From Jimgerdemannia flammicorona (lineage: Eukaryota), in the NCBI GenBank assembly GCA_003990765.1, contig RBNJ01000208.1, positions 1 to 36,659 of the forward strand: DNA of 36,659 nt, in the 5' to 3' direction. The stretch's first letter is position 1; each line of letters opens with the position of its first letter. Below the pieces are notes generated by a model. It was not told where the DNA came from and made no database searches. It was given only the letters and a program-made list of their open reading frames with translations. Positions 1 through 30,678 of the stretch are shown piece by piece. A program made the position numbers and the translations under genes.

Positions 1-74
1 CAGACAATGCATAATACGGAGTGGACCATTCGGATAATGTGGTTAAAGCGGATAATATGAAAATAGTAGTCTGC

Positions 75-114
<40 letters not shown>

Positions 115-1400: not shown

Positions 1401-1804
1401 CAGGGTTGAGAAAGGAGAAGGAAGGAAATAAGGGAGGAATGAAGCTCGGTAAAGCCTCAAGTAGCCACATGGTCATTGGGAGATAGGGGTGGATGCGGGG
1501 ATGGTGACGTTGGAAGTTTGAGTGGGTTTTAGCGAATATGGGGGTATAATAAATAGTTGGGTCATCAGAACAACCCTTAATTTTAAATGCGAACACGATG
1601 AGCCGAGCGGAGAGCATATCTAATTATCCCCAATGTCCATACAAATGACAGAATCAAATTCGTGATTCATATATACATATGTATTTCCCATTCTTTGTCG
1701 ACAGAAATAACAGGGCGTATGGAAATTATTTTGGTGAGGATAACAACGGATGAAGTTATTTCCCATATGGCGAAAAATTAATCTAGCGCCGATGTGTCTC
1801 ACCC

Positions 1805-1835
<31 letters not shown>

Positions 1836-2560: not shown

Positions 2561-3574
2561 CTAGTAGGAGGTGGTGAAGATGGGGCTGGTAGAGGTGGTG
2601 TAGATGGGGCCGGTGGAGGTGCTGGAGGGGGGAATGATGGAGGAGGAGGAACTAGTAGTAGGGGGCACACCAGCGCCAAGCTGGCAGCCTTGGATGGCGG
2701 CGTTCCAGTTCTGCTGGATGAGGTACTTGACGCCGTTGATGTCGATGTTGTACTTGGCGCCGTTATGCAAGGTGTTCACGGTACCATAGACGTAGGCGCA
2801 CTTGTCAGCGTTCTCGTTACCGGTGGCATCGGTCCAGCCGGAGGCTGGGTCGGGGTCGGAGATAGCCTCCATCATCTCGTGGGTGATGACAGAGCCCATG
2901 CCGTCAACACCAGGGCTATCGTTGGGGGAGTTTTTGATATTGTCGGGAGCACAGGCGGAAAGGCAGTTGGAAAGATCACCAACGAGGGCGAACTTTATGT
3001 CCTTCGACCCCAACTTGAAGTTGTTGTGGTAACCACAGTATTGTTTGCAGAGACCAGAGGTCACGTCAACATCGGGCGATGTGAGGAGGAAGTAAATGCC
3101 GTTCTCGTCGGTGACGAGGTCGCCAGAGTTGAGGTGCGCGGTAACAACATCAATGACATCTTGATCGGAGAGGGACTTTCCCTTGGAGTATTGGGCGTCA
3201 TCAATCGATTTGATGAAGTTGACCGGGCCAGTAACGTACTCCTTTTCCTTGCCAGCAAGCTGCTGGTAATAGGTCTTCTCAATGTCGAAGTAAGAGGTTT
3301 CGCCGATGTGGCTGGAAAGATTCTCCAAGATTTGCCTATCGGAGGTCTTATTCCATTGACCGTAGTAGATGTAGTAGATGTTGACGGTGCCCACCAGGAG
3401 GGGCCCACCATTGTACTTGATATTACCAGCGATGGGGGCGTGGGTGTGGAGGTTAGGCTTGAAAATCGCTGTGATCTTCTTGGAGCCAATATTAGGGGGA
3501 ACGCTGGGAGCAGCAAAAGCGGAGGCGGCGAGGAAACCCAGGAGGGCAGAAGCGACGAGGACGAGCCTGACCAT
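2561..3574 (-). CDS. Secreted PHI-1/EXORDIUM-like protein (phosphate-induced protein 1 family) with a Ser/Thr-rich tail
   Basis: Intact, intronless 337-aa ORF from ATG to TAG with a hydrophobic N-terminal signal peptide. Family-typical motifs: YNGGPLL, NIYYIYYGQW, IYFLLTSPDV, CxxYCGYH, SPNDSPGVDGMGSVITHEMMEAISDP, ENADKC, YLIQQNW. Strong C/G-ending codon bias. Confidence 0.88.
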   Translation of the reverse strand: MVRLVLVASALLGFLAASAFAAPSVPPNIGSKKITAIFKPNLHTHAPIAGNIKYNGGPLLVGTVNIYYIYYGQWNKTSDRQILENLSSHIGETSYFDIEKTYYQQLAGKEKEYVTGPVNFIKSIDDAQYSKGKSLSDQDVIDVVTAHLNSGDLVTDENGIYFLLTSPDVDVTSGLCKQYCGYHNNFKLGSKDIKFALVGDLSNCLSACAPDNIKNSPNDSPGVDGMGSVITHEMMEAISDPDPASGWTDATGNENADKCAYVYGTVNTLHNGAKYNIDINGVKYLIQQNWNAAIQGCQLGAGVPPTTSSSSSIIPPSSTSTGPIYTTSTSPIFTTSY

Positions 3575-3676
3575 TTTCGTTAGCGCGAGATTGAGTGTGT
3601 GAGTGGTTGGTGTCTTAGACGCGGTAAACCTGTTGCGAGAGTGGATTGAGAATTAAAAACTGGCTCTGTGGGTCCG

Positions 3677-3684
3677 TTTATATA
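3677..3684 (-). promoter_or_regulatory. Putative TATA box of the PHI-1/EXO-like gene
   Basis: TATATAAA on the minus strand about 100 bp upstream of the ATG at 3574. Confidence 0.5.
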
Positions 3685-4237
3685 CGTATCTTTTGAAGGA
3701 ACCTGCGCGCATGTACATATAGGCCAAAGTCTGTTCACCAGCCCACCCCGACAAGCCAGCCGCAAAATCCGAAACCATTAACAACAATAAGTGTCGAATT
3801 ATGGCCAAGTTGGGGGCTGAATTTCCTATTTTATCCACTCGGATCTCGTTTACCAACGGGATATCCGTATTGCAATTTTTACAGAGTTTCGCAGGGGTCA
3901 ACGGTTCATTTACCAGGTAATTTCACCGCGTTATAACGCCTTCGGAAATTATTGTTATGCAGATTTGCGGAAGGCACAGTCCGGTAAGGCCGAGACTAAG
4001 GCCGAGTTATTTTGACAGTCCCCCCGATTGGACAATCTGAAACGGAATGCCAAAAAAGGGTGGTTCACTAAAGCGGCCACCGCCACAACGTGGCAGTGCC
4101 AGAATTAAGTCAATTTGCTACTGTAGCTTGCTTGTCACGATCGGGGGTCCTCACGATCGTGGTTGGGAATTAATTATGCATCATGATATCCCGTGTGGAA
4201 AATGAGGCTGCGGAATGGAGAGCGGATGGTTCATGTT

Positions 4238-4538
4238 CACAGTAATAATAATAATCATATCAGCCCATGCACTAGCCCCACACGTCTGCCCGAACACAAG
4301 TCTGTACCACCCGTCTGTACATCAGCCTATACACCAGCCCGTTGTCTTATTTACCACAACCATAGACCACATTACTACCCAGCCGAAGTAAACGTTGAAA
4401 ATAAATCCATTTCGGCTATAATTGTAACCTAATAAGGCAGAGGCTGAAGCATGAACTGGTATATGGGCTGGTGTATACGAAAATCACACGGGACATGTGG
4501 CTGATCTGGATATATCTGATACAATTTGCAATCACTAT
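4238..4538. mobile_element. Possible MITE-like foldback element
   Basis: Internal inverted match TATACACCAGCCC (~4328) / GGGCTGGTGTATA (~4465), and imperfect inverted ends (ATCAGCC / GGCTGAT). No clear TSD. Confidence 0.3.
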
Positions 4539-4764
4539 CTAGAGCAAAGGCACGTTTCTAGATACCAGGTGTGATGGCCAGGAACAGGCTCTGGATGTAT
4601 CTAGAATTGCTTTGGCATACGTTCTAGTGTGTTCCTGTATTATTCTAATACCATTCAATAAAATTAAAATTATATTTTTTATTATTAAACAATCCTGGCA
4701 AGGTTTTGAGGGTAAAATAAGACTATAACTAAAGCTACATGAGTTGAAAGATTTATAACGGATG

Positions 4765-6000
4765 ACGGACGATGAGTGATGAACGCAGAACGACGATGGT
4801 AATGAACAACGACTAATCCCGGGACATAGGACAATGATAAATGACGACAGAGAGTAGAGCAGCGATGAACGACGGCCAAGCACAGAATGATGATGAACGA
4901 CTACCAGGCTCAGAGCAGAACGGCAATGAACGACGACTAAGCGCAAAAGGCAATGAACGACAACTAAGCACAGAACGGCGATGAACGACGACTAAGCACA
5001 GAACGGCAATGAACGGCAATAAAGCGCAGAATGGCGACTAAGCACAGTGTAGAACGGCAATAAAGCGCAGAATGGCGACTAGGCACAGCGTAGAATGGCA
5101 ATGAACGACGACTAAGCACAGAACGGTGACGAACGACGACTAAGCACAGAACGGCAATGAACGGCAATAAAGCACAGAATGACGACTAATTACAGCGTAG
5201 AACGTCAATGAACGACGACTAAGTGCAGAACGGCGATGAATGACGACGACTAAGCGCAGAACAATGACAACGACTAAGCGCAAAATGGCAATGAATGATG
5301 AAAAAGCACAGAACGATCTAGCCCAGAGCAGTGATGAATGATGGCGACTAAGCACAGAACGACAAAGCCCAGAACAATGATGAATGACAACGATGACGAC
5401 GATCGGAACACCGAACGGCGAAGCCCAGAACGACGACGGCTAAGCCCTAAATGACGGTGAATGGCGACCAAGCGTGAACGACACTAAACCCAGAACAGCG
5501 ATGCCCGAATAGCACAGAATGATGATGACTAAACCCAATGAACGACGACTAGGCGCAGAACGGCAATGACCGACGACTATGCGCGGAACGGCGATGAACG
5601 ACGACTAGGCGCAGAACGGCAATGACCGACGACTATGCGCGGAACGGCGATGAATGACGACTAGGCGCAGAACGGTAATGAATGACAACTAATCACCGAA
5701 CGGTGATGAACGACTAAACACCGAAAGGCAATGAACAACTAAGTACTGAAAGTCGATGAACGACTAAGCCCAGAGAGATGATGAACGATGATGACGACTA
5801 AGTGAAGAGCAATGACGTCGACTAAGCGCAGAATAGCAATGAACGACGACCAAGAACAGAATGACAATGAACGACGACTAAACCCAGAGCAGCGATAAAC
5901 GACGGCTATGCTCAGAGTAGCGTAGAGTAATGACGACTAAGCCCAGAGCAGTGTAGAATGATGACGACTAAGTGCAGAAGGACAAAGAACGATGACTTAG
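4765..6000. repeat. 28-bp minisatellite array (consensus ~ACTAAGCACAGAACGGCRATGAACGACG)
   Basis: Tens of degenerate tandem copies. A near-perfect 56-bp dimer repeats around 5545-5680. Confidence 0.92.
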
Positions 6001-6049
6001 CACTGCTTTTAGCAACTGCGAAATATTTTTAGAATGGCCTAAGATCAAA

Positions 6050-7148
6050 CCACAGCGAAATATTTCCTAAATGAACTCCCAAGATGCGTAGACACAACGA
6101 CTGCGAAATGCTAGTGGTTTTCACAGAGCGATTACGGCAGGGTGTCTTGTGGCAGTGGGTGGTAGTTTGTCGTTACAGCAGGGTGCAGAGTGTGAACTTG
6201 GGCAAGGGAGGCAATCTCGGTTCCGGAGGGAAGGAAAGAGTAGTGTGGAGTGCCAAGACCCAGGAATATGCTTCAAAATTGGCGCGACCCAAATCTAAGT
6301 GTTGTGGAACGACGATTTGGAACAAATGGTTCAACGCAAGCTGAGATCACTTATACACATCGAGGAGGGGCCGAGGGGGCTACACACTGATTTACGTGGG
6401 ATCCCCATATATTCAGTTATGTTCGGGTAGGGGAATTTCATAAATAAATGCATTTAGATAGGGTAATAAAAACTCAGTTTGGAAACATCGAATAAGTAGG
6501 TGTGCATTCCTAAGGCCCTGACGTATTCCAGATTCGGTGCACGATAGGTCTCTTTTCAGGCCACCCCCCGAGGTTCTAAGACGCTGCACTTAGCGAATTT
6601 CTTAGAAAATACATCACCCTAGACCCAATAATTTCAAATTGCACACCGCCTTTTTATTGTCATGAAATCTCACTAAAGAAATGTCGCGTGGCCACGCATG
6701 TCACATGACATTTTTGGAAAATGCCGTACATCAGGATATACCAATACTATACACATTTTATTCAAGATATCTGCTTGTATCAGAGCCCAATTTTCCAGTC
6801 ACCAGATACCAGATACACAGAGATACAATGGGAGCAAATACGCCCAGAGCAGATCCCAACATCATGTGGCGGCCAAAATTTCTAGGTATTTGCTGAGTTG
6901 GTGGACGCTTTAGTGAAACCCCAAAAAGGGTTATCGCCCACATGTGTCAGTAATAATTATATTTCCGAGATCCTAATTTCATCGACGTGGCTCACCAGGC
7001 CTGTTTTCGGATAGCTCAATCATCATAAAATCCTGGTACCGTGAATTGAGTACCCGTGTACGCCAAGTATTATGTGACGTGGTTTATGACGCCAATCCTG
7101 CCCATGTGGATCACGGATCCACCAAATGGTTGGCCTCATGTGTTGACA
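6050..7148. mobile_element. LTR-like non-coding segment ending TGTTGACA (left end uncertain)
   Basis: The right end ...TGACA abuts the point where the LINE RT is cut off. It has no convincing ORF and retains CpG, unlike the adjacent LINE. Confidence 0.3.
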
Positions 7149-7154: not shown

Positions 7155-10100
7155 TAAAATAATTTATGCATAGCTAGTCCAAAACCTGTTGAGCTACCCC
7201 CTGTAGCCTATCTAGTAGGATCTTTGTGACCAGTTTGTGATCCATATCTAAAAGCATAATTGGTCTTCAGTTCTTCCACTCCTCCCTTCTCTTCTTATTC
7301 TTATACAGCAGAGCCATAAGACCCAAGCTCTGTCTCCCAATCCATGCTTCTGAGTCTATCACTTTATCACACATTACCACTATTTCCTCCAGAATCATCT
7401 TGACTCCTGTCATTTCCTTCCAAAAATCCCACTGTAAGCCATTCTCTCCTAGTGCTGTCCTAGAGCTTGTCATCATCAGAACCTACTGAATCTTCCCCTT
7501 AGACAGCAGTACCAAGGTCATCTAAGCCCACTGCCAGATCAGAGTGCCATTCCTCCAAGTATATATCTATCAATGTCCAGTACCCTCACTCCTCTATCCT
7601 CCTTGCTCTAATAGTGATCTCACCACCTGCTCAGCTGATCCAGAATCTCTAGTACCCCAACAACCAACTCCCCAGCCTCATCCAAAACCCCCCCCAACTG
7701 CTGCTGTATTCTCCTTGCCTGCAGAAGCTATGACAAAAACTTGGTCAGCCTTTCCCTCTCCTCTAATCTCTACCATAGCAGCTAGGCCACTATGCCCTTA
7801 ATCTGAAGATCCTCCTCTTATCTCAGTATATCCTTTAGCTCCTCTACCTTTAGCCTGATCCACTGTATTTGCTAATCTCCTTCCTCACTATCCTTCAGCA
7901 GACCTGTCCAAGTTGCCAACAACCCTATCAATCTCAGAGAGGTCCACCTTACTTGCTTCTTTCTCTGAGCCCCCTGGATTCTTCCTGCCTCCCCCCAGTA
8001 CTTTTGTACCTCAGATTTCAATCTTATCCAGTGATCCCCAATCCCCAGCCCCTCTGCTCACCAACCAAGAATCCTAGAGCTAATATACACCATCCATATC
8101 TCTCATAGGGAGGTCTCTCCTAGTAAGGAGATATTTAGTTACCAATTTCTAGGCCCCTCCCCACTTCCCCCAAAGCACCCCCCTCAAGAAGACCCCTGTG
8201 ATCTGATTATAGATACTAAATAGTTTCTAAAGTTCTTCAGAAATCAACACCCCAGCAATCAGCAGTCAACATCCAGTCAATCCTTGAGCTCAGCCCTACT
8301 ACCTAGTGGGTAAAAACCCTATGATCCTTCCATCTAAGTCTCCTGGTATCTACTAAAGAGCCCAGACATTTGACTTTCTCTCAGGCTTCTATACCACTGC
8401 TCTTACCTACTATCTCTCTTCCTCCATTAATTCTGTCTATCTTTTCATCATACACTATGTTAAAGTTCCCTTCTAGACAATCAATACCTGCCTCCACCAA
8501 TGCTCTAGATTCTCATAGCCCTCAAATCCATTCTACTCTCTCTCTTCTCTCTGCTGGATAACAATAAGACCCAACTGTCAAGGATCTCTAGCCTGGACTC
8601 TTCCAAACTCCCCACACTACTCTGCTGCCCCAGTATCTAATGTCTGCAATATCCCTCTGCCCTTTCTAACCAGAATGCCCACATACCCTTGCCAAATAGC
8701 CACACTACTCCACTCCTTCATCTAGTCCAGAATATCCAAGTCTCTATTATACCCAACATCCTGCAGTAGGAACAGATCTGCTTCTGTCCCTTTCAGCCAT
8801 CCAAAGATATTTTGATATCTCACTGCTCCCCATAGCCCATTGACATAAAGATAATATTCTAGTTGTACTGTTTATATTGAATAATATTATTTGAAGAACA
8901 GCTGTCTACTCTATAATTCCATACTTGCCACATCACTAGCAATATCAAGGTTCCTCTCAGCCTCCAGTTTATATATCTCTCCTTACTAAGCCTTCAGTGC
9001 CTTCAAGATCTCCTGACAATCTGCACTATCTACAGTCTCTATCTCTGTTCGGTACTCCTCACACACCACCTGTCACTTTGCCAGCCCTTTTCTCAGACCC
9101 TATATATATATAGCCCTGTTATTCACAATTGCCAGAAGTGCCACCTCTCTGTCATCATCTATCTGATATGTCTCAGCCTCCAGCAATACTACTATTATCT
9201 CATCTCAGAGTTTTCTTGACAACTTCTCACTATGCAGAATTTCACCACAGTGCCTCTTGCTCAGTACCTGGAAGTCCTCTCCCCTCAGCTCCTCAGCTGC
9301 CATATTCTTAAGCATTTTCTACAGCTATTTCTCCTTGACCTTGGTCCCTGTCACTCCTTGGACCACTCTCTTCTCTCCTTCCATCTGCCCACTCTCTGCA
9401 TTCCTTTTTACCAACTCATCCCAATCCTCCTCCAGCATATCTAGCAGTTTGTCATCTCCTATAGTCCTACCTGGTACCCTATACTGAGGGCTCTCCCTCT
9501 CTGCCATCTTCACATCCTCCACCATGATGCTCTGCCCTGTATCTTTCCCCACTCCTAGAGCTCCCTCTGATGTCACTCCCTTCTCTCCTGCCCAGATACT
9601 TGTCCTCAATCTAGCTTCATCAGTGGTGGTCCCCCCAGCTGCTCCCTCTCTCAACTTAGCCAATAGATTCTTCTGAATGCACCTCCCCTGCACTCTCTCC
9701 CTAGCTGTCTGGTCCAGCCACACCTTCTTGCCATTCATGATCTCTACAATCATTCTGACCTCAAACTTCTTCTATGCCAATCTCTTCCTCTCTATGACTT
9801 CAGTCAGATTCTCCAATATCTCTAGCAAGTCCTCTTCTTCCTTTAGTATTTCTTTTACTCTTGAGACCTTATACTCTACAGATCTCCATTTGAGGACTAC
9901 TGGTTGGTCTCTTGCCTTCTCTATATTCTCCTTGCCTACCAGCTACCCCCTGATGTCCACATCATCAGTTCTGAATTTGGTGCCCTTCTAGACCCAAAAC
10001 TCAATATCTATGATTTCTCTATACTCTTTGATGGCCTCTACAATCCACTTCCTTCAATACTATAGGAATATCCAGCACTGTCAGCTATACCACTCAGAGA

Positions 10101-10800
10101 TCTCAGTACAAGTACTGAGCTATAGAGATTACTACTCCTCCCATCACCACTCCTCCATTACTTCCAACAGAATCTCCTCTTTCTTAAAGCCCACCTTCAC
10201 CTCTTCCAGACCCTTCAAGAAATTCACCAATACTGCTCCCTTTACCTCCTGGATGAGAAGTCCCAGAATCATCCTTGTCATTACTACTAAGCCTTAGAAA
10301 TACAATGTGACAGCAAATTCTAATCTCAATTTCTTGAGTAACAGTACTGCCACTAGGCCCATTACACTATTTATCAGATCTCTGGACCTCATGCCCCCCC
10401 TCTGTCCAGATCTATCATCAGTCATCACATCTGGATTTTTTTTCCAGATTAGCAGTCTTCTTACCATCAGCAGTCTCACTCCTTCCAGCCACTACTCTCT
10501 CTGCTCTGCTGCCCTTGTCACTACAATCTGCTCCACCAGCCCCTATAGTCCTTACTGTCTCCTTGCTCTTCTTCAGCCATCCCTTTAGTCTAGTCATCAG
10601 ATAGCTCTCCTTCACCTTGTCTGCAAAGCTTATTCTCTCAGTCTCCTATCTTCTAGAACTACCTTCTCCCCTTCTATATCCCCCAGCCAGTAAGCCCTAT
10701 ATACTTTTCCCCAAGTTATAACTCTTTCCCACATACTGTCAGTCAAATGCACTAGGACTACCCTGCCCAGCATGCACCTCAGAATACTTGTCAGTTGCTA
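7155..10800 (-). mobile_element. Degenerate L1/Tx1-like non-LTR retrotransposon (ORF1, APE endonuclease, N-terminal RT; 3'-truncated)
   Basis: Minus-strand motifs occur in the correct order: LYVNGL (~8845), ADLFLLQD (~8770), GNFNIVYDEKIDR (=GDFN, ~8460), FTH...SSRIDW (~8290), SDH (~8200), then RT start ALGENG...ALLYKNK...KN*RPIMLLDMDHKLVTKILLDRL (7450-7200). Many stops and essentially no CpG. Confidence 0.88.
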
Positions 10801-11859
10801 TATTGCTAGTATCTTTTCTCCAAAAATGATATCTTGAGTATTGTTAGAAGTTTGTATAACCTGAATATTACCAGAGAAAGGTTGATCCAGGAGCTCTCTG
10901 AGATTCTCATAGTTAGTATTCAGAATTTTCTTAGTAAATATTATTTTGAATAACTTGTATTTAGTAGAAATAGCAGAGGTGTTTTAGATTTCTCACAAGA
11001 TCTTAGATAGGCAGATATCTCAATTAATAATATTGACTTTGACAAGTTCTTTCTTAATAATCTGGTTGATTTATTCTGTCATACTATTGGTTTGAAAGTA
11101 ATATGATATATTTCTTTTTAGGTAGATCTTGTGAATTCATATATAAGTAATAACAAACTTATTAATAAATTCTGTATTATAGTCAGAGATATGTTTTTCT
11201 AGAGATCAATATCTAAGTATAAGGTTATAGAAAATATTAATAATACTCAAGATGTTAGTGATTTCTATTGAAAAAGCTTTAGATCATTTGGATAGATATT
11301 TTATAAATACTAGAATATATTTATTTCTTTATAGTATAACTAGAAGAGATCTAACAATATCTATTCTCTAACTTTTGAAGATATGGATAGGTTGGATAAT
11401 TGATTATAATAATATCTAATAACTTTTCTTTTTTTAGTATCTCTGGCAGGTATAGTACCTTCTAAATATATTCCTAACTTATATTCTGAAATATGGTCAA
11501 TATTAGTATATCTCTTATAGTTTTCTTTTATACTTCTTTATCCTTAATAGACCTTCCAGTGTTCTTATCAGATGAGATCTTTTTGCATCTTAGTAGTTGT
11601 GGAACTTTCTTTAGAGTATAGTTCTAAGACAGATTCTTCTAGTTTATTGAGTCTTGAAGAAAAGAGTATCAATATTATTATAAGTTTTTCCTACTTTATA
11701 GGTAATTGTAATTCTGTAATCTTATAAAATCAGAATCTAGTAGATAAGAATTCTGATAGATTTTATATAATGAAATAGCTATTTAAGAATAGTATGGTCA
11801 GTTATTAGAGTAAATCTTTTTCTGATAAAATAATACTTAAACAGAATAACTGTCCATAT

Positions 11860-12092
11860 CCCTTTAACTGTAGATAGGATCAATTATTTAGCAGACAAAT
11901 TAAGGTTTGAAAAAATGATTATTTGAAATATTGTTTAAATTTTTTTTTTTTTTTTTTTTAAAATTTTTACTAAATGTAGAATTATTATATAACAAATTAT
12001 TGGTAAATTTTTTTTTAAAAGCTCTTATGATTTTAAAGGTTATAAACTTTTAAAATCTTATCTCTAAATATAGATACAAATTAGTCAAAGAG
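11860..12092. mobile_element. ~233-bp MITE with CCCTTTAACT-type termini inserted in the Gypsy RNase H
   Basis: Left end CCCTTTAACT and right end AGTCAAAGAG (inverted, 2 mismatches), flanked by ATAT and ATAA. Removing the insert plus one AT restores the RNase H frame (TVI-WTV = AVIWAV). Confidence 0.7.
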
Positions 12093-15000
12093 ATAACTGT
12101 AAGGTATTCTAATTTGGTACTACTATAGTTAGCTTACTACTTTTGATAGTTTGGCTTATATAAGCTATTATATAATACTGATAATCAGGTCTTTTTTGAG
12201 CTAAGACTACTCTGAGACCATTTTTAGAGATATCTATATATAAGATAAATGACTTCTACAAGTTGAGTTATATAAGAACTAATGCTGTAGTCATGTAAAA
12301 TTTGAGTTTCTTAAAGGTTAATACTTATGATTTCTTCTATTTATATTATACTTTTTTCATACTATTCCTTATAAATCTCTTATAGTAAAATACTAACATC
12401 AAGAAGGATAGTGCTTCCTTCAGAGTTTTGAGTATTGGCCAATTATTGATCCTCTCAGTTTTCTTTAAGTTTTATAAAATCTTTTTTTAGAAACTATAAA
12501 TTTAAGAAATTCAACTTTCTACTTTCTAAAGTAGTATTTCTTAACATTGTGTATCAGATACTTCTTTCAGATATTGTAAATATTCTTCAAAATTTACTAA
12601 ATAAATGTTGAGTTATATATAGATAACTAGATAGTGGTAGATTAATAGAATATAGACTATGTCCAAAGGTTAAAAGTATATTGTCAAGTTCAATGAGTAT
12701 TTAGAGATATTCAAACAGTTTTTCCAGAGTAAGAAATGCTGTCTTTTGAATATATATCTTTAGGGGTTATAGAGATTTTATAGAATCTTGTAAAGAGATC
12801 TATATTGCTAAGATATCTGATCTCTTATAATTAATCTAGGAGGTTGTCAATTTAGGACAAGAGATAGACATTTTTTCTTATTACTAAATTGAGCTTTTTG
12901 TAGTCTATATAGTTTCTATCATCTCTTCTTGAGTATAATATATAAGTATAGAGCTAGCCCAAAGACTGGTAGAAAGTCAGATGACTTTATTATCTAAGAG
13001 TTCTTAAATATAATATCTTTAGATAGTGGGATATTCTATAGAGTTTTTGTCAGATGAGTTTTGAATTTTTTATATTTATACTTTAGTAATATAATAGATT
13101 ATATAATAGGTTACCATAGTCTATAATAAAGATATCTTAATATTTATATACTTATCTAAACTTTCAAATCCTTTGATCTGTTTTATATCTTGGCTCAGTT
13201 CAGAAACTTCTTACAGTTAGAGTATCTTGACTTTTATAAAGACTATCTAGGTGACTTTTTCTCTATAGATTTGGATTTATTCAGAACTACTGTTTTTCAA
13301 AATGACTTTTATTTCTACAGTATATCTAGAATCTATTATTTCTCTTTCTGTAGTTAATTCTTATTTCACAAGTTCAGATCTTGAGATTAGCTAGATATAG
13401 AGTCCTTTGAGCAGTTATATGATGAGTTCTTTACTATACTATACTTTCAAAGTTCAGAGTTATGTCTTAAAGGCAGTAGAGATTATGACCTTTATCTTCT
13501 TTGTAGGCTTTTATTTAAAGAATAGCTTCAGAATATAATAAAACATATTGTACAATATTCTTACTAAGTGTAAATTATTTCTGAACAGAGACTTCTGTAG
13601 TTATAAATCTCTAGGCTCTAATGTTGAGATGTAGTAATCTGACTCTAGTGGAGAGATCTTAAATATAATTAATATCTCTTTTCTCTATAGGATCTAGGGC
13701 TTCTATAAAGTTGATAGTATTCTCTATTTATTTTAAATAAGTAAGTTATATATTTATTAAGAGCTAGAATATCATCTCTTAGATTATGGATCATACATAA
13801 GAGTCTTTTTTATAACTCTTCTATCTTGTTCCTTTTGAATCTTAGCCCTGTTATCTCTCTTTTTGAGTATGTATACTATAATATTTTGACTGAGTTAAAT
13901 ATTCTCATACTAATAGGTTTAGAAGCTTAAGCATTTTCTATAGTAGTATTAGCTTATTGTTTGAAAGTGATATTTTTATTATAACTTCTTACTGTCTTGG
14001 AAATTTGCAACTATCTCTATCATAGATAGCTAAAAGAGTGATATATAGAAAATATACTTCTGTTTAGATAAAGTAATCTCTTCTATATATAAGGTTATTT
14101 TATTAGTATTATTATTGTTTTTTAAAATATAGCTGACTGTATGATTATTACTAAAGATACTAGGTCTGAGTATTTTTATCTTCACTGTTGATCTAGCAAG
14201 TAAGATTGATAGCAGTAGTCTCAGAAAGAGTGGAAGACTACTTGATGCTGATATTTTCCTTAGATAAAAAGCTCTTTTCTAGTTTATTACTTGTTTTGAG
14301 ATAATGATAACTGTACTTAGTCCTTCTTCAGTATTTCAGAATTCATCATCTTCATCTTTTAGTAGTATCTAGTATGGATTATTTTAAGAGTTTAGCTTAG
14401 AGAGTTTTTCTGGTTCTGAGATTTCTTCATCTGTTATTTCTTATCTCTAAATTACTTATACTTCTACAGCTTCAGTTGTAGAGTCAGATGACTTTTATAA
14501 ATAGTTGCATATATTTCTTCTTTCTTCTTCTGCATTCTAGATATACTGTACTAGAGGAGTTTTTTATTCTAATGTTCTTAGAGGAGTGTTTGAGAAATTT
14601 GTATCTTTTGAGATAAGTAGAGCATTCTTTGATTAGCTCTACAATGGTATCAATTATAATAAGGATAGTGTTCTATACCTATATATTATCTTCTGGCCTA
14701 TTATATACTAGATTGATTTATAGATAAAGTTTGGGATCATTGCCATCTTCAGATTTTTTCACATCTATAGTAGATAATTTACTACTAGCATACTTTTCCT
14801 AAATAGTAATCTTCTTCTTTTCTTAAATTGCTTATAATTAGTTACTTTGATTTAGTACTTCTTTTCTCTATAGTTGAATTTGAGAACTATTGACTAATTT
14901 TAATAATTGTATTAATTTTTTTTATTCAGTTAGTGCTCAGGATCATATTGTAAGTAATAGCTTTAAAGATGACAGTTTTTGAGATAGAGAACAGAATGTG

Positions 15001-15837
15001 TCTAAGAATAATAATAATGTTTTATACTTCTTCTAAGGGTTGAGTTAAGGCTATTATTATGCTGAGATTAGATAATCCATTAATAGATCACTAGAGGGTG
15101 TCTAGAAATGATTTTATGATAATATAGATAGCTACTTCTGTATCAATAAGTATTTTTGTCTTTTGTCCTTTAATATATCTATATAGATAAATACTAATAT
15201 GTCTTTTTACAGCTTGGATAGTAGTTGGTACTAGTTTGTACTAAGGAATTAGAACTCAGTCTTTACTGGTTCTAGTGGTTCTCAATAGTTTGTTTTAAAC
15301 TTCAATTATAAAATTACAAGAAGAGAACTTCTATCTTGGCTTTTTTGAATCTTCTTTCATATGTTATCATAAATATCTTAGAATATAGTCTTTGGGATAT
15401 ACTTCTTCTTGAGTTTTAGAGTTACTGGCTCTGGTATTTTTTGCTCTATTTTCTCATCTTTAGATTTAGATATTAGTTTATCTATTTAAGAAGTAAAGGG
15501 TAAAGGAGAATGAGACGGTGAATCAATATGATCTTTAGCTTTTTCTTTTTATAGAATTCTCCTCTTCAATTTTCTAACTGGTCTATCTTTATTTATCTTT
15601 CTTTTTTCTATAAAGTAAACAATTTTCCTAGAGATAACCTTAGTTGGATATAGCTTTAGATTACTGTATTCTTTACTATCACTTTTTTTATGATATTCTA
15701 TGAGTAAGCTTTGGTCTTTTTGTATTTTTTCAGTTTGTTAATTCTAGGTCTATTTGATCATTCCTTCTATTATTATATTCTGTAATATAGTAACAAAACT
15801 ATCCACAGTTATTATTGAACTTGAGTCTTATTATATA

Positions 15838-17437
15838 CAGTGACTTCCAAAACTGGTTCAATGTTTTATTATTTTTTATTTTTTATTATAAAAAAAAATA
15901 GATAAAAATATAAAACTAGAGTATATTATAGCCCTATATTAGAGGTTTCTATAGATAATAATTTTATTATACTTATTATTAAAATTGCTATTAAAAATAA
16001 TTTTTAAAAAAGTCCATACATTGGATCAGTTTTGGAATGACTATTTCAATAAACATATTTTGTATCACAGACCATCAAAAAATTACTGTATAAGTATGAA
16101 ATTTTGAATAATTATTCTCTTAACTCCTCTCTATATACTTATATTTTTTATTTTATTTTCTATCTCTTTTTTTATTTTTTTAAAAAAAAATGAGAAAAAT
16201 TCCATTGAACACTCAAAAAACATCATTGCTCTATATAGCAATATGTCAAATTGCCAAACAGACTAGTGTTAGTAAGACAACCATAATCTGTATTAAAAAA
16301 GAGTATTGCTCTACTATATTGTTAAAAAGAGGTCATCCAAAAATACTCTCAGATTATGAAAAATTATAAATAGTTCACTAGATAACTAGTGGTAATGCTG
16401 ATATGACCCCTGAGGTTGCAAAACTACTCCAAGAAGACAGCTAAGCAAAACAACATTATTCTTGAATCATTTCATTACTATTTGTAATATATGTTTTGAG
16501 TTAAAATATCAGTTATTTCTAATTAATCTTGAAATATATAATTGATTTCTTTAATTTATTGTCAAGGATGCTTTGGTAAAGCTCGGCATTCATTGATTCT
16601 TCGATTTTGCATGCATATCCTGCATATCCTGCATATTCTGCATATCCAGCGCCATTATAATTCATGTAGCTCCAAATGGAATCGTCCCCAAACTTTAAAG
16701 TCGGTGTCATGTGGTTCTCTGTCAATTGTTCACCTGCCGCAGCCAGAAAGTCAGTACGTCTTTTGAGCCAAAATGGTTATTTGGTCTCATTAGAAAATAT
16801 AATGTACTTCTAATTAACAACTGTCCACTCTTTATATATACTTGTACATGGATTTATATTGAGCTTTTATATATCAGCAGAAGAGTTGACAATTGATAAT
16901 GAGTATGAAAACACTGCCATCCCTGGACCTAAGCCCAATCGAGCACCTGTGGGTGCATATCAGGGGTTTCTTTCACTTTATGGTAGTCTTCAAACTGACT
17001 TCCTTCAGGGCATGATGCACTGTTTAGAGCTTAATCTATGAGGAGCTACTAAAAATATATATATGAGCTTTGGGAATGTGTAGAAGTTGAATAGAATGCA
17101 ATTCTCAGCCAAGTATGGTATAGATTTAATCAATAGTATGCCAAGGTATATTGGTGTGGTGTATAAGATAAAGGAGGCTATGTAAAGTATTTATCAGTAT
17201 CATATTTAGTATTTATTGAAATAGTCGTTCCAAAACTGGTCCAATGTGTGGACTTTTTTAAAAATTATTTTCAATAGCAATTTTAATAATAAGTATAATA
17301 AAATTATTATCTATAGAAACCTCTAATATAGGACTATAATATACTCTAGTTTTATATTTTTATCTATTTTTTATATATTTTTAAAATAATAAAAAGTAAA
17401 AAATAATAAAACATTAGACCAGTTTTGGAAGTCACTA
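15838..17437 (+). mobile_element. Tc1/mariner DNA transposon (Tc1-like) with ~215-225-bp TIRs, TA TSD and an internally rearranged dead transposase
   Basis: TA|CAGTGACTTCCAAAACTGG ... CCAGTTTTGGAAGTCACT(A)|TA, with TIRs at 15838-~16053 and ~17212-17437. Transposase motifs: QIAKQTSVSKTTI, RGHPKILS, TVHHALK..KKP, WT..IFSNETK, PTLKFG, MNAELYQSIL, SLDLSPIEHLW, ELWECVEVE, LINSMPR, GGYVKY. Confidence 0.92.
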
Positions 17438-17860
17438 TATAAGATAGATAGTTTCTTACTTCTTATAACAGATAACTTCTGTTATCACAAAATAGATAGT
17501 TCTGATTTTCTTTTAATATATGGCTCTTAGTGTTTTATAGATATATAGTACAGAATTTTATTTATAGTAATTTTTTTAATTTATCTGATTAATCAGTCTA
17601 GTTTGTAGCTAAGCTTTTGAATTTTATTCTTACTTTCTTTTATTTATTTATAGAATTCTTCTCTCTTAAATTTTCTTAAAGGATTCCTTAGAGTTTTTTG
17701 ATCAAGAGGTCCTTCTTATCTTCTTTCTTATTATTATTCTAGGTGGTTTCTTTCTTAATATCAAAGTATTCTTAGACTACATATATCCACTTATTTAATT
17801 AGGTCTTTTGATATCATGAGTATAGACATACTGGGTAATATTGGGAGGGATTCTATTTAT

Positions 17861-18938
17861 TATAATGTACTAGCTCAATAGAAACAAATTACAAAATTGA
17901 GACTACTATGTAGATTGGTTTAAGTCTCTAGTTACTTTCTCAAAAAGTAATAAAATGTTTAATAGTTTCTTATTTATATAGTATAGATAATTTTAGTTAG
18001 ATTCCTGATTAGGCATAGTTCTGTATATATAATATAATAAATTTAGTAGACTTCTTAAATAGTATAGATTCTGTATAATATAACAGATTTTAGCAAATTT
18101 CTTAAATAGTAGATAATAGCAATTTTCAGACTTAGTCTGATAATTATATTAAATATATTGAATTTCTCTTCTGGCTTAGTCTTACAAGTATACCAAAATA
18201 TAATAGATTTCTTAAATTCAGACTTAATCTAGTAAGTAGACTAAATAACTATAGTAGACTTCTTTAACTAAGTTATATTAGTTGACTACTTTATTTGTAT
18301 GAATAATTTTGCTATGAAGATATATCTGACTAACTGTCTTGGTCAAAGTAGAGCAGACTTCTCTTTCTGGCAGACTTCTTTATATCAAAAAGTGGATTAG
18401 AGTAAAAAAGAAAGCTCACAATCTTCTGTATAGTGACTTTAAAGTATATATTTCTCCTAAGTATTATAATCTTTCTAAATCAAGTAGCTTTTGACAGATA
18501 TATTTCTTAAAGTATATTAGATAGACTTGTCTTTTGCTTTTGACCTTTTTATACTATTTTTTATATTAGAAAGCAGATCAGAGTGAAATCAGATATATAT
18601 ATTAAGTTCTCTTACTTGTAATGTGAATTTCAGACTGAGATTTAATTACTTTGATTATTGAAGTATTTTATACAGTTGTATTGCTAGCTGATTGCTATGT
18701 AGCTAATTAAAAAATATACAGTAAGACTAATTTGAAAAGGTATTCTCTTAGAGAACAGATATTTCTTTAGAGTACAAGTATTCTCTCTAAGTATTAGAAT
18801 ACTCTGGAGATATGAAATTTATTCTAATTTAGTATATCAGCTATTTATATAATAGTGGTATAAGAGATAACTATATAGAGTAACTATACTGAGTATTTTG
18901 TACAATATGTAGCTATATTATAATATTTGCTTATTATA
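17861..18938 (-). mobile_element. Hypermutated solo LTR nested in the Gypsy gag region
   Basis: Collinear (reverse-complement) similarity to the 26591-28134 LTR. Termini TATAAT...ATTATA equal TGTAAC...GTTACA after deamination. Flanked by TTAT on both sides, but this AT-rich TSD support is weak. Confidence 0.7.
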
Positions 18939-19930
18939 TTATAAATATCATTAGACCAATGATGACTTGATTAGTAGTATTGAATTTAGCAATATATATT
19001 CTCTTTTGAATTCTTATAAAAAATACTTAAAGCAATTTTTCAAAATTCATCTTCATGTCTATAATTAATTCTTAGACTTTGTAGTAAGTTTTGATTTCTG
19101 TACACTTCTCAATAATCTAGTAAGAGATGGCTTCATATTGAGCTATATAATAGTTTTTAGTATGTAACTAGAACTTATTCTAGTCAAAGTTTAGATTATT
19201 TGATATTCTGATGAAGATTCTTTTGTTCAGCTCTTTTATTTATATCTTAAGTATAATTTGACTTCTGAACAAGAGATATTCAATATTACAATTTCTTCAA
19301 TAGTATCTAGAAATTCTACAGGGTCTTCTTCTGGATATTCTGTAAATATGAGTACTATTCTCTAGTTCTTCCTCAGTTTCTAAGTCTGAATCTGTTTCTT
19401 TAGCTATTTCTATAGGTATGCTATATTTAGTTGAGCTATTAGGAATCAAGAGGTAGATATTAGGTCTCTGGAATATGGGTACAATTCTTAGTATTCTCAA
19501 AGATAGTAGACTTAGAGGGTTTGCTGGTCTAGGCTGGGTAGGATATCTAAGAAAAATTGAAATTAGACAATGTGATCTTTAAGTTTTTATATAAGTTTAA
19601 AGTTTTATATAAGGTTATCTCTATTATCTGATTGGTTGGACTGGGTCAGGTCTCTTAGTAAAAAATCTGCAGGTACTTCAGGTGTATTTATCAGATATAG
19701 ACTTAGTGATTAGGTTAGTAGTAGTAAAAATTTCTGTACAGTACTGGCTTCTTTTTGAGATTCTTCTGATAGTGAATAGTTGGCTAGTCTTGAGGTAATT
19801 ACTTCTCTTTCTGTCCAAATGCTGCTGATTATTAATTCTCCTGTAGTAGTAGAGATTGGTGTTATATCAAATATATCTAGTTTGTTTGTTGAGTTTGATG
19901 AGCTGAAAAGTTATATAGATTTCAAAAATC

Positions 19931-19948
19931 TTCTCAGTTGAGTCCCCA
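19931..19948 (-). promoter_or_regulatory. Primer-binding site, tRNA-Pro-like
   Basis: TGGGGACTCAACTGAGAA begins 2 nt after the LTR end GTTACA. It matches the canonical tRNA-Pro PBS TGGGGGCTCGTCCGGGAT at 12/18, and 4 of the 6 differences are G>A or C>T. Confidence 0.65.
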
Positions 19949-19950
19949 AA

Positions 19951-20195
19951 TGTAACATACCAGCTCAATGGAGGCAAATTACAACAGTTGGGTGACTATG
20001 TAGATCAGCTTGAACCCCCAGTTACTTTCTTACAAAGTAACAAAATGTTCAGTTGGTGCAAGTTCTCTTGTTCATATAATGCAGATGATTTTAGCAATTT
20101 TCGTAACAAGTACAGATTCTGCATAATATGGCTATTTAGCAGACTTCTTTATATCAGATAGTAGACCATAAATAAAGCTCACAATCTCCTTTACC
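19951..20195 (-). repeat. Partial, internally deleted 5' LTR of the Gypsy element
   Basis: TGTAACATACCAGCTCAATGGAGGCAAATTACAA matches 17861 onward and the reverse complement of 28100-28134. Similarity ends near AAGCTCACAATCTCCT (~20190). Confidence 0.8.
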
Positions 20196-22044
20196 TGCTG
20201 CAGGATATATTACCACTTCGCTCAAAGTGTCGGATGCCGATCAAGCACATCAACGACAACACCCTCGACGTCATACCCCCTAGGAATTAGCATAGGGTAA
20301 ACAATGAATATCTGACAAACCAATGCATATTCCTATGTCTGGGAGCTCATCCATCGCACAATCTGAAGGAGCCTCAGCCATCGGGCAATCCAAGGGACCT
20401 TCACAATCCGAAGGGTAATCAGACATTGCACAATCAGAAGGGGTTTCAGCCATCACACAACCCGAACGGCCATAGACGTCGTGAAATCCGGAGGGGCGTC
20501 GGCGGTCGCTCGGAAAATAATAATGACTTCTCTCATTTTCCAGATTGGAGAAAAGAATGCCAGCAGCGAGCCTGACATAATTCAGTTCGAGTTTAATTTT
20601 CGTGGACAGATTCGTTCATCATTTGTATTTACGAGTCACTCTAGCGTCATGTCATGGCTGTTGGCTGTTGCTTATTTATTTATTTATTTATTTATTTTGC
20701 ATGGAGCCATCAGACTGTGAGCTCACATGTGCTTCGGAAATTTATTTCTTCGCTATAGACTTTTTGGTTGGCGTTGTGGCTAGAGTAGGTTACCCACCGA
20801 CGTCACATCCACAACGTCACTCCGAGATTCTCCGAGAACTCTCAAGACTTACGAGCACCGAACTGAATCCTTGCATGACTGTGACATAAGCAACAATCCA
20901 AGACTTTTGAGCACCAAGAGCATGAAATCGATACTTTTGACCGCCAAACTGCACCCTGGAACAACTGTGGCATGAGGACTCTTGATCACCAAACCGAGAC
21001 TTTTGATCACCAAAGAGCACCCTTGCGCGACTGTGGCCGGCCTGTTTTAACGCATGTCACGAAAGCACACCTGTCCACTTTGAAATTGACAAAGACACAG
21101 AGAGAGAAAAGACCGATACATAATAGTGTATTTATTTTTAAGTTGATACAACATGCTGGAATATAATTACAGAAGGGCAGGCTTGCCACCGCAAACTCAC
21201 ACGCAGTATACCGCACCAGCGAACCTGTCAGGGAATATTTCGTAATTGGTTGTTGTTCGCTTGGTTACCCACTTTGTCGAACTTCGCGTGCTCGAACTTC
21301 GCGTGCTCGAGGCCGCGCAGGCGATTGCACCAGAAGTTTGAATGCTTTTGTATCTCGCTATAGGAAATGGATTGGAGGAGCGATGTGAACTCGGTGTCCG
21401 ATAGGCATAGCTCCCGCAGAAGGATGAAATCGATTGACAACTGAATCATAACGTACGTAGAGACATCAAGGAACTTGCGAAAGCTTTTCGATAAAGGAAA
21501 ATCGGTTGAATACAAAACGAATTGAAAATTAGATTTGTTGAAGGCTATTCATTTGTGTTGAGAATTTCCATATTACGTGATTGACCATGTCCCAGGTACT
21601 TATATAGTTGTGGCAGCAAATAAAATTGGACATCATTAGAATTAAGTTACTTATTAACCTCCTTTCATATACTTTATTAAGATATATCGCACTAAATTGA
21701 AATATCCATGACGCGTGGCGAATTTTCAGTTCGTTGCAAGAGAACTCGATAAGAAGAGTACTGTATATAGTGGGGTTGGAAGGTGCGAAGCGAGGTGAAA
21801 TTGCTAGTTTTGATGTTGCAAACAACGAAATCTGAGTAGAAAAAAGGTCTTTATTTCGCTTCGTTTTAGACATCTAAATAAGCATGATTCGCTTTAAATG
21901 CCTTCAGGTTGAGGAGGTTCGCATGTTTTTGGTCTTGCCATGTTACTTTCACTTTCATAAAATTTATGTTGGGCCTTTGTCATGTCTCATTCAGGTTTTT
22001 TTTTAAAAAAAAAAAAAACATTATAATAAATTTAAAAGCAAGTG

Positions 22045-22365
22045 AAGAAACCCCACCCTATACAGAACTCTCGCAACCTAAAAAAATTGAAGGCAGTATT
22101 GTTCGCTGCCCACCCTATACAGAACTATTGGAACCTAAAAAATTGAAGTTAGTTAGAGAATAAGAGATTGGTCGCTGCCCACCCTATACAGAACGATTGG
22201 AACCTAAAAAATTGAAGTTAGTAATAAATGGAAGCCGACCTTAACTTGTCGGCTGTAAATCAAGAACTAAAACCGATGTAAATCAAAAACTGAAATCGAA
22301 GGCTGACCTTACCTTGTCAGCCGTAAATCAAGAACTAAAAAAGAAGGCTGACATTGTCAGCAATA
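22045..22365. repeat. Two short tandem arrays (3x CCCACCCTATACAGAAC...AACCTAAAAAATTGAAG; 3x hairpin-bearing GCYGAC..GTCRGC unit)
   Basis: Direct copies at ~22052, 22108 and 22178. Hairpin units at 22233, 22301 and 22346. Confidence 0.8.
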
Positions 22366-22594
22366 GTTACCTAATTAAGACCTTTTGAATAATCTTCTTG
22401 CCAGTGGAAACTCTTGCTTGGACAGATAAGAAAATGGGGCTGACTATCCCGCTTGTTTAAGAATAGCCGCAACATGCCATCAATACATGATGCTGTACCT
22501 CTTGCCCCCATAATCAGATCCGCTGTGGTCCCACTAGCTAGGATCTAAGATTAACTGAACTTGGGCCTCCCATCTATTAAGAGGGTTGTGAACC

Positions 22595-22960
22595 CAATAT
22601 CCCACAATTAACCAATTTTGCTCTACAATTACCACAATTAACATAACTAATTTAATGAGCTTGGACCTCCCGCTTATTATGGGGAGGCCATCGCAACGTA
22701 TCCAGCTGTTATCCCATTTAGTTTGCAACATCCCATGATTAACCAATTTTGCTCTAGAATTACCATAATTGATATAACTGATTTAATGAGCTTGGACCTC
22801 CCGCTTATTATGGGGAGGCCATCGCAACATCCAGCTGTTATCCCATTTAATTTGCAACATCCCACGATTAAACAGTTTTGCTCTAGAATTACTACAATCA
22901 ACCTCCCGCTTATTATGGGGAGGCTAATGCAACATCCGGCTGTTATCCCATTTAGTTTTC
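22595..22960. repeat. ~130-bp tandem repeat, 3 copies
   Basis: Recurring AACCAATTTTGCTCTA...ACCTCCCGCTTATTATGGGGAGGC...CTGTTATCCCATTTA at ~22610, 22741 and 22871. The third copy has a deletion. Confidence 0.9.
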
Positions 22961-23225
22961 TTCCGTTGTTCCTTTTTCCGACTCCAAAGTTATCCCATTT
23001 TCTTTTGTATTTTCTTTGCGCTCAGCCATAAATGGATGAAACACAAAAAAAATGTTTCAATATTGGAACAGGTTGCTACCAATAACTCTATTGAATATAC
23101 AGCATTGGACAGCTCTGCTCCATTTTGGGAAAGTTTTACGTCTTATCCAGGACGAGCAGCATAAGCCGTTAGTCGAAAAAAATTGGTTCAAAGCCCAACT
23201 AGGGGTATTTGAATGATTCATCGCC

Positions 23226-24090
23226 CTTTGTCCTTTCAACCTTTTGCGAAAGCCCGAACCATCCCACACATAAGGTGGGAGCGCCCTCGAATTTCCGGAG
23301 AACCCGAAAACCAAAGCCAGTGGTCGCAAGCAAGCAAGCAATTGAAAGGAAAAGTTGATAGGTGAAAATACGCATTCCCAGCCAAGAGGTGCTCGCTCTC
23401 TTTATAAGAGGCTAATGCGAAATGTTCAAGGTTAAGGGGGCCACTTTGTCCTTTCAACCTTTTGCAAAAGCCTGAACCATCCCACACATCAGGTGGGAGC
23501 GCCCTCGAATTTCCGGAGAACCCGAAAACCAAAGCTGCTGGTCGTATGCAAGCAAGCAATTGAAAGGGAAGTTGATAGGTTGATAGCCAAAATACGCATT
23601 CCCAGCCAAGAGGTGCTCGCTCTCTTTATAAGAGGCTAATGCGAGACGTTCAAGGTTAAGGGGGCCACTTTGTCCTTTCAACCTTTTGCAAAAGCCTGAA
23701 CCATCCCACACATAAGGTGGGAGCGCCCTCGAATTTCCGGAGAACCCGAAAACCAAAGCCAGTGGTCGCAAGCAAGCAAGCAATTGAAAGGAAAAGTTGA
23801 TAAGTTGATAGGCGAAAATACGCATTCCCAGCCAAGAGGTGCTCGCTCTCTTTATAAGAGGCTAATGCCCCCTTTGTCCTTTCAACCTTTTGCAAAAGCC
23901 TGAACCATCCCACACATAAGGAGGAAGCGCCCTCGAATTTCCGGAGAACCCGAAAACAAAAGCTGCTGGTCGTAAGCAAGCAAGCAATTGAAAGGAAAAA
24001 TTGATAGGTTGATAGCCAAAATACGCATTCCCAGCCAAGAGACGCCCGCTATCTTCATAAGATGCTAATGCGAGACGTTCAGCTAAAGGA
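23226..24090. repeat. ~204-224-bp tandem repeat, 4 highly similar copies plus a degenerate tail to ~24260
   Basis: Unit start CTTTGTCCTTTCAACCTTTTGC at 23226, 23444, 23668 and 23872. Confidence 0.95.
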
Positions 24091-30648: not shown

Positions 30649-30678
30649 TATATCCTTCTTGTCTTTTTTTTTTTTTTT

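Follow-up and report, generated by a model that had tools for sequence, protein, structure and literature searches.

Composition and layout of the window

The window analysed in the present study, the whole 36,659-nt stretch of contig RBNJ01000208.1 (GenBank assembly GCA_003990765.1), holds a nested set of transposon relics from Jimgerdemannia flammicorona, an ectomycorrhizal fungus of the Endogonales (Mucoromycota), and parts of this set have undergone extensive cytosine-to-thymine hypermutation. An earlier reading made from the sequence alone (hereafter the original prediction) had placed a 13-kb domain of such directional change at 7155–20100, likened it to RIP (repeat-induced point mutation) and tied its interest to an early-diverging fungal host, which the species proved to be. 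Direct counts confirmed the predicted near-absence of CpG over approximately 13 kb with sharp edges: 11 CpGs were observed in 7155–20100 against ~304 expected from the base composition of each stretch, and nine of these lie within one inserted terminal inverted repeat (TIR) element. By segment, one CpG was found in 7155–10800 (141.8 expected), one in 10801–15826 (82.9), nine in 15827–17448 (31.6) and none in 17449–20100 (47.6), their positions being 9050, 15516 and nine sites at 16584–17226, with no others. Outside these limits, the nearest CpG to the left is at 7114, and to the right at 20102. The corresponding flanks carry 396 CpGs in 1–7130 (373.4 expected), 320 in 20101–28150 (382.2) and 440 in 30300–36659 (364.1), and only four were counted in 28200–30250 (38.0 expected).

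The predicted single domain did not stand as one unit, since it comprises at least four elements and is not uniform, although CpG loss does run throughout 7155–20100. The GC content is 25–27% in 10801–19940 and 28200–30250, and 45% in 7155–10800. Based on GC per 100 nt, the AT-rich part stops at approximately 19940, while the CpG-free stretch extends to 20101. The ratio of observed to expected CpG (o/e) is graded across the window, from ~1.0–1.2 in unique DNA, through 0.59–0.83 in the repeats at 22–23 and 25–28 kb, to 0.01 at 45% GC in 7155–10800 and 0.0 at 25% GC in the AT-rich blocks. The unique flanks are normal in both GC and CpG.

A decayed Ty3/Gypsy element and its relative

The best-defined relic is a hypermutated Ty3/Gypsy interior at 10830–15826 on the minus strand (GC 0.258), recognised by Pfam searches, run in six frames on smaller pieces with stops read as X, and by blastn to a related contig described below. 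Its domains follow the Ty3/Gypsy order of protease, dUTPase, reverse transcriptase (RT), RNase H and integrase: a protease motif near 15144 (..LIDTEVA..), a dUTPase at ~13525–13157 (Pfam E = 1e-5), RT at ~12929–12495 with the decayed motif ..EKLFEYL*ILIELDNILL.. at 12718, RNase H at ~12340–12093 (Pfam RT_RNaseH_2, E = 1.5e-9) and integrase at ~11590–10886, all on the minus strand. The decayed Gypsy motifs cited in the original prediction (KLFEYL*IL.. and DTEV) are those at 12718 and 15144. No long terminal repeats (LTRs) of this copy were found at 80% purine/pyrimidine identity over 60 nt.

The decayed dUTPase-RT translation matched 10 proteins of a representative protein library, by the dUTPase part only, the best being P0121, and a search for longer proteins related to P0121 gave only P0131 (404 aa). 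Scanning metagenome contigs with P0131 yielded L001, a contig of 4101 nt encoding a protein 99% identical to it. L001 (positions 1–4101) has a GC content of 45.7% and a CpG o/e of 0.36, and its open reading frames (ORFs), which lie in three different frames, contain dUTPase, RVT_1, RT_RNaseH, Integrase_H2C2 and rve domains. It belongs to the same family and is apparently intact, with one stop at 849–851 within the dUTPase frame. L001 and the window are colinear by blastn from 13868 down to 10886 at 65–71% identity.

Direction and extent of change

A global alignment of the element at 10.9–14.1 kb with L001 provided 2646 ungapped, well-aligned columns, in which 599 of the 1216 G/C sites (49%) are changed by C>T (348) or G>A (251), against 105 of the 1430 A/T sites (7.3%) changed by reverse transitions, and 212 transversions; as L001 is a relative and not the ancestor, these apparent rates include ordinary divergence and the absolute rates are blurred. 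A blastn alignment without a transition bonus (2044 columns) gave a similar picture, with 419/924 forward (45%) and 65/1120 reverse transitions (5.8%) and 154 transversions. Six pairs of decayed and better-kept sequences within the window, totalling 553 ungapped columns, added 118/247 forward and 27/306 reverse transitions with 33 transversions.

The protein P0131 provided a codon-level test. Among 220 aligned codons, 101 are identical in amino acid and 119 mismatched; 67 of the mismatches are explained by C>T/G>A changes alone, 11 by reverse changes and one by transitions in both directions, whereas a transversion is required for 40. When codons were permuted (2000 trials), forward changes explained 18.6 on average and 33 at most. 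The replacements at conserved G, P, A and T codons are those expected from C>T/G>A, and 12 in-frame stops lie opposite P0131 residues (five glutamines, two tryptophans and one each of R, P, Y, E and T), which fixes the polarity, the older state being the one with more GC and open reading. A lean towards A/T is seen in transversions as well (70/1216 towards versus 33/1430 away), by 2.5-fold compared to 6.7-fold for transitions. Directional change well beyond CpG is thus borne out in the alignment to L001, in the pairs within the window and in the codon test. It exceeds the background AT drift that the original prediction had named as the alternative, both by this asymmetry and because a sister copy at a similar transversion distance is not hypermutated. 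Overall, about half of the cytosines on both strands have become thymine in 10801–19940 and 28200–30250, taking the GC content from ~45% to 25–27%.

Strand balance, sequence context and RIP indices

Both strands are affected equally. The codon test counted 38 C>T and 37 G>A changes on the sense strand, and relative to L001, that strand is changed at 348/703 C and 251/513 G positions. The damage is uniform along the Gypsy element, with a mutated fraction of 0.42–0.67 in each full 250-nt bin along 3 kb. Across the window, damage stops at element junctions, and where a repeat occurs in several copies it strikes some and spares others only a few kilobases away.

The base 3' of the cytosine has a strong effect. 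In the L001 alignment 250/382 CpA (0.65), 155/328 CpC (0.47), 55/75 CpG (0.73) and 136/340 CpT (0.40) sites are changed (p = 1e-13), while the effect of the 5' neighbour is small (0.46–0.59, p = 0.002) and a preference for 5' T is absent (TCG 24/41 versus CCG 22/24). The repeat pairs show the same order with CpT spared more (CpA 0.65, CpC 0.57, CpG 0.74, CpT 0.21), and are without an effect of the 5' base (p = 0.47). Codons whose class is fixed by the reference amino acid are changed in 10/16 CpA and 18/32 CpC cases, and cytosines at codon position 2 in 11/13 cases before A, 7/10 before C, 1/1 before G and 5/17 before T. Every dinucleotide context is therefore affected, in the order CpG ~ CpA > CpC > CpT. 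With CpT the least mutated context, the surviving cytosines of the AT-rich blocks sit in CpT/ApG, for which o/e is 1.6–1.7. The balance of the strands and the role of the 3' base would fit an enzyme that recognises the CpN dinucleotide in double-stranded DNA, in the manner of DNA methyltransferase-like proteins.

By the classical thresholds for RIP (TpA/ApT of at least 0.89, (CpA+TpG)/(ApC+GpT) of at most 1.03, and a composite RIP index (CRI) above zero), two segments are positive: 10801–15826 (1.16, 0.90 and +0.26, respectively) and 17449–19940 (1.21, 0.89 and +0.32). The thresholds are not reached jointly in 7155–10800 (0.96, 1.48 and −0.52) or 28200–30250 (0.97, 1.27 and −0.29). The TIR element at 15827–17448 scored 0.95, 1.32 and −0.37, and the flanks together with 19951–28134 scored 0.74–0.79, 1.07–1.31 and −0.28 to −0.55.

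Mutated and unmutated copies of the same repeats

A second line of evidence comes from an LTR-like repeat present in three copies. Copy A (17845–19940, plus strand; GC 0.263, no CpG, CRI +0.32) is hypermutated and matches 28151–28015, 27409–27212 and 27039–26618 at the purine/pyrimidine level. Copy B (19951–20149, plus strand), a fragment with the same repeat start at the right edge of the AT-rich block, is not hypermutated. Copy C (26618–28151, minus strand; GC ~0.45–0.48, CpG o/e ~0.7) is the less-mutated control copy that the original prediction had reported. The comparison of 42 nt given in that prediction was reproduced exactly: 17861–17902 differs from the reverse complement of 28093–28134 by nine G>A and one C>T, in four CpA, one CpG, two CpT and three CpC contexts. 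BLAST searches on purine/pyrimidine-collapsed sequence, the E-values of which are invalid, served through their strongest matches as anchors only, and transition-tolerant local alignments were too gappy and their results were not used. A 19-nt tandem array of copy C (26726–26901, ACTCATGTCCTGCGGACAC-like) persists in copy A at 18740–18786, where Tandem Repeats Finder (TRF) detects period 19 and the G's and C's are mostly now A's and T's.

Copy A differs from copy C by 23 forward and five reverse transitions and 10 transversions, and copy B from copy C by nine, 12 and 11, respectively. Over the ~100 nt alignable in all three, private changes comprise 13 forward transitions, one reverse transition and one transversion in copy A, three, two and two in copy B, and two, three and seven in copy C. 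The ratio of forward transitions to transversions is thus 13:1 in copy A versus 5:9 in copies B and C combined (Fisher p = 0.004), in a small sample. A copy of similar transversion age therefore escaped mutation, and the damage is specific to individual copies.

A second AT-rich block, absent from the original prediction and free of CpG apart from the four sites counted above, occupies 28200–30250 (GC 0.273), beginning immediately past the end of copy C, and contains decayed copies of 25590–25838 and of 21294–21399, the latter aligning to 28766–28871 in a purine/pyrimidine dot-plot. The two pairs from this block (P5 and P6) show 58 and 23 C>T+G>A changes against 20 and four reverse changes, respectively. 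The AT-rich state ends at ~19940, coincident with the start of copy B, and resumes just beyond the end of copy C, for which reason the unmutated stretch 19951–28151 would seem to be younger material set between a pair of decayed blocks.

A 1.6-kb Tc1/mariner-like TIR element at 15834–17441, sitting in the decayed Gypsy element, has TIRs of ~225 nt and ends TA|CAGTG...CACTA|TA. Its inverted repeat (15861–16053 and 17212–17404) is 91% identical, and by-eye reading of the alignment suggests that the arm cores differ by transitions only. The arms have 13–25% GC per 100 nt, while the centre has nine CpGs and 39–47% GC. The centre, which is the only CpG island of the domain, includes a 9-nt tandem array at 16612–16647.

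Several repeated sequences outside the AT-rich blocks have retained their CpGs. Four tandem copies of a unit of ~206–224 nt occupy 23147–24100, inside the unmutated 20.1–28.1 kb segment, and are alike at 66–96% (ungapped) or 87–89% (gapped BLAST), which bears on duplication as a sole trigger. Strand-asymmetric minisatellites at 4700–6100 and 30850–33250, built from purine-rich units of 28 nt and from CTCCACCACGACGCG-like units of 15 nt at 53–62% GC, are highly repeated with a CpG o/e of 1.2–1.5, and are without signs of C-to-T decay.

The CpG-free left part and other features

The left part of the domain (7155–10800), a degenerate CpG-free repeat with a GC content of 0.448, has a plus strand composed of 33% C and 12% G. 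The predicted broad-context loss held in 10801–19940, but for this part only the loss of CpG is certain, the GC content being kept at 45%. Its dinucleotides include ApG at an o/e of 2.08 (0.74–1.09 in unmutated parts of the window, 1.6–1.7 in the AT-rich blocks), CpT at 1.30 and TpG at 1.29. Pure CpG decay would agree with the retained GC and with TpG, but the ApG excess and the 12% G hint at additional loss from one strand. No Pfam family was recognised in the six frames with stops read as X; a 148-aa ORF had no atlas match, and a minus frame with stops read as X had no homologue. The minus frame from 10800 contains 63 stops, compared to 88 ± 8 in shuffled sequence and 115 and 83 in the other minus frames, and this may be what is left of an ancient long ORF. 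The depletion of G would fit the same CpT-sparing process having acted chiefly on the minus strand; native strand bias combined with simple decay of methyl-CpG is just as possible.

The only clear cellular gene of the window is a Phi_1 (phosphate-induced protein 1) / EXORDIUM-like gene at 2564–3652 on the minus strand (Pfam PF04674, E = 2e-28). Its protein is 99% and 83% identical to two Jimgerdemannia proteins, the former from J. flammicorona, followed by a few matches at 46–60%; the lower matches that carry names are bacterial metagenome proteins (~42–50%), and either horizontal transfer or a patchily distributed family is possible. Very long homopolymers occur at 79–140 (T36-A-T27), 1806–1834 (A29), 30670–30720 (~T50) and 34866–34917 (~A52).

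Interpretation of the hypermutation

The sequence facts are solid: transposon relics of a mucoromycote have undergone hypermutation that is saturating, directional, on both strands, in all contexts with a CpG/CpA bias, and copy-specific. As to its cause, we see roughly an even chance that these relics record a RIP-like, episodic, DNA-level process targeted at repeats or heterochromatin. Under this proposal cytosine-to-thymine hypermutation would act in episodes on double-stranded genomic DNA at repeats or heterochromatin, in the style of RIP, and the unmutated elements (19951–28151 and the centre of the TIR element) would have been inserted after the mutagenic episodes. The RIP-like interpretation of the original prediction was upheld in part, namely in direction, in reach well beyond CpG and in the control copy; on the evidence of one window, either duplication as the trigger (true RIP) or dense methylation with passive deamination may lie behind the changes. 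We do not claim membership in canonical RIP; the process resembles RIP in how it operates and is most suitably classed as a variant of that kind.

The probable agent, by analogy with the RID-independent, DIM-2/heterochromatin-dependent route of RIP in Neurospora, would be a DIM-2-like methyltransferase of the DNMT1 superfamily in Endogonales. According to a survey of Mucoromycota, conservation of RID-1 is limited to Pezizomycotina and DIM-2-like homologues are present in Endogonales and Glomeromycota (PMC9963178), and it is on these two statements that a DIM-2-like enzyme appears the most likely agent. The same survey speaks against the ordinary explanation anticipated in the original prediction, namely an ascomycete with canonical RID, as J. 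flammicorona is a mucoromycote and the survey gives RID for Pezizomycotina only (PMC9963178). The stronger proposition, that Endogonales possess an active RID-independent defence which mutates repeated or heterochromatic DNA from C to T in all CpN contexts via such an enzyme, is one that we put forward tentatively and hold to be somewhat improbable as it stands.

Several observations weigh against a RIP-like process. Canonical RIP mutates both partners of a duplication, and here the sister copies (copies B and C, 21294–21399 and 25590–25838) are unmutated, which later insertion could explain. The tandem repeats at 23147–24100 and the GC-rich minisatellites at 30.8–33.3 kb keep their CpGs, so that either they arose more recently or the process is triggered by something other than homology. 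Strand-coordinated clusters of changes were found neither among the repeat pairs (62 runs versus 63 expected) nor between the Gypsy element and L001 (0.471 strand runs per site versus 0.467 expected). L001, although intact, has a CpG o/e of 0.36, and CpG-linked decay therefore exists in this Gypsy family; the rates derived from it carry the blurring noted above. The left part of the domain lost CpG without clear loss in other contexts, a state that slow methyl-CpG decay alone could yield. Finally, the methyltransferase repertoire of Endogonales rests on the statement of a single paper (PMC9963178), and a published k-mer screen labels the species 'no_rip', with no k-mer enriched in its annotated repeats (PMC12543289).

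Many of these points are what passive decay would predict, an explanation that we consider possible though on balance doubtful. Old heterochromatic transposons, densely methylated at CpG and non-CpG cytosines, for instance by a DIM-2-like enzyme, would lose 5-methylcytosine by spontaneous deamination over a long time, CpGs going first (the state of 7155–10800) and other cytosines later (that of 10801–19940), with neither homology sensing nor a mutagenic episode. The graded CpG o/e series within the window, the already lowered CpG of L001, and the equal and even effect on both strands without strand clusters agree with this, as do the reported DIM-2-like homologues of Endogonales (PMC9963178); if it is age and not duplication that decides, tandem repeats and sister copies without mutation are also to be expected. 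Age alone, however, accounts poorly for copies A and B, which at similar transversion distance from copy C carry 13 and three private forward transitions. Nor does non-CpG loss simply follow age, since 7155–10800 is too degenerate for protein-family recognition and still retains 33% C on one strand. The states are moreover all-or-none with sharp junctions, and DIM-2 is described as CpT-preferring (PMC13297926), whereas CpT is the least mutated context here. Both the RIP-like process and passive decay need non-CpG cytosine modification or mutation in Endogonales, which is so far undescribed.

A third explanation, that these families are natively AT-rich and CpG-poor or have been subject to a general AT-biased drift, draws on the lean of transversions towards A/T and on the 13–25% GC of the TIR arms. 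We rejected it as very improbable on the codon test, including the 12 in-frame stops and the predicted replacement of G, P, A and T codons, on the private changes of copy A (13 of 15 being forward transitions) and on the excess of transition over transversion asymmetry, in addition to the 45.7% GC of the intact relative and the normal unique flanks. Alternatively, an AID/APOBEC-like deaminase could have edited the cDNA or RNA of retrotransposons during retrotransposition, so that copies were hypermutated before insertion. This would suit the retroelement origin of the worst-affected sequences and the arrest of damage at element junctions, but such editing is strand-specific (G>A on the sense strand) and governed by the 5' neighbour, and it is contradicted and effectively excluded by the balance of the strands and the dominance of the 3' neighbour. 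Even jointly, these last two explanations retain only a slight share of the probability.

Implications and published screens

If the stronger proposition is correct, mutagenesis of the RIP type would not have been invented by Pezizomycotina but would be something that DNMT1-like enzymes of fungi acquired earlier or independently, and RIP-type relics in Mucoromycota would have been overlooked by composition screens since they are no longer annotated as repeats. Whether RID is needed for RIP-like mutagenesis, and how old the repeat-mutating ability of DNMT1-like enzymes is, can be tested now. The finding also bears on how a genome of ~231–240 Mb with >77% repeats, as given for J. flammicorona (PMC10386755), tolerates transposons. 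We found no literature report of RIP-like mutation in Endogonales or Mucoromycota, in a search that did not cover the genome paper of the species. That paper, reportedly by Chang et al. in New Phytologist in 2019, may bear on the question.

Leptosphaeria maculans is a textbook case of AT isochores made by RIP. A 2025 screen of 1,239 genomes, as published, reports signatures of repeat-directed mutation in ascomycetes only (PMC12543289). Its Table S14 lists for J. flammicorona 23 k-mers whose enrichment in non-coding DNA exceeds 2-fold, zero in annotated repeats and zero in both, with the label 'no_rip', and a supplementary table (file 13) gives a 4.0-fold non-coding enrichment of TATA in this species. 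Table S14 shows the same pattern for L. maculans (45/0/0, 'no_rip') and 13/0/0 for Endogone sp. (PMC12543289). Since L. maculans is also labelled 'no_rip', relics too decayed for repeat annotation escape the criterion of that screen, and the figures it published would agree with an abundance of such relics in J. flammicorona. RIP screens that rely on repeat annotation should thus be expected to miss heavily decayed relics.

Comparison with known systems

Canonical RIP is a homology-triggered process that acts premeiotically after fertilisation, with a strong preference for CpA in Neurospora. The window shares with the RID-dependent RIP of Neurospora crassa and Pezizomycotina the C:G to T:A transitions affecting both genomic DNA strands, the conversion of transposon relics into sharp-edged AT-rich blocks, the place of CpA among the top contexts with an influence of the 3' base, and positive indices (in 10801–15826 and 17449–19940). 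It differs in its host, a mucoromycote, RID being reported only in Pezizomycotina according to the survey cited above (PMC9963178). It differs further in the breadth of context, CpA (0.65) being favoured but not dominant over CpG (0.73), CpC (0.47) and CpT (0.40), and in that sister copies and tandem repeats are untouched, where RIP would have mutated all copies existing at the time.

A RID-independent route of RIP in Neurospora that depends on DIM-2 and H3K9me3 was reportedly described by Gladyshev and Kleckner in 2017. The agent proposed here would by analogy resemble it as a non-RID enzyme of the DNMT1 superfamily causing C-to-T change in heterochromatic repeats. A 2026 review states that DIM-2 methylates all CpN contexts, favouring CpT, and that heterochromatic repeats of older age need it for RIP (PMC13297926), whereas CpT is the context least affected in the window.

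The complete loss of CpG limited to repeats recalls the CpG-targeted mode of Basidiomycota, which 7155–10800 in particular resembles. This transposon hypermutation is said to have been described by Hood et al. in 2005 and Horns et al. in 2012. Unlike that mode, 10801–19940 shows changes at 40–65% of non-CpG contexts, and no preference for a 5' T. RIP-type signatures in both Ascomycota and Basidiomycota are mentioned in the 2026 review (PMC13297926).

Among early-diverging fungi, the entomophthoralean Zoophthora radicans was reported to carry a composite-index RIP signal in 24.2% of its genome, with caveats, in a study that otherwise describes RIP as observed only in Dikarya (eLife 2024, PMC11105155). 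As with the window, RIP-like composition is hinted at in a fungus that diverged early and has DNMT-like candidates. Z. radicans belongs to another phylum, and its signal consists of index windows only, whereas in J. flammicorona the direction, sequence context, strand balance and copy specificity of the changes could be read against reference copies.

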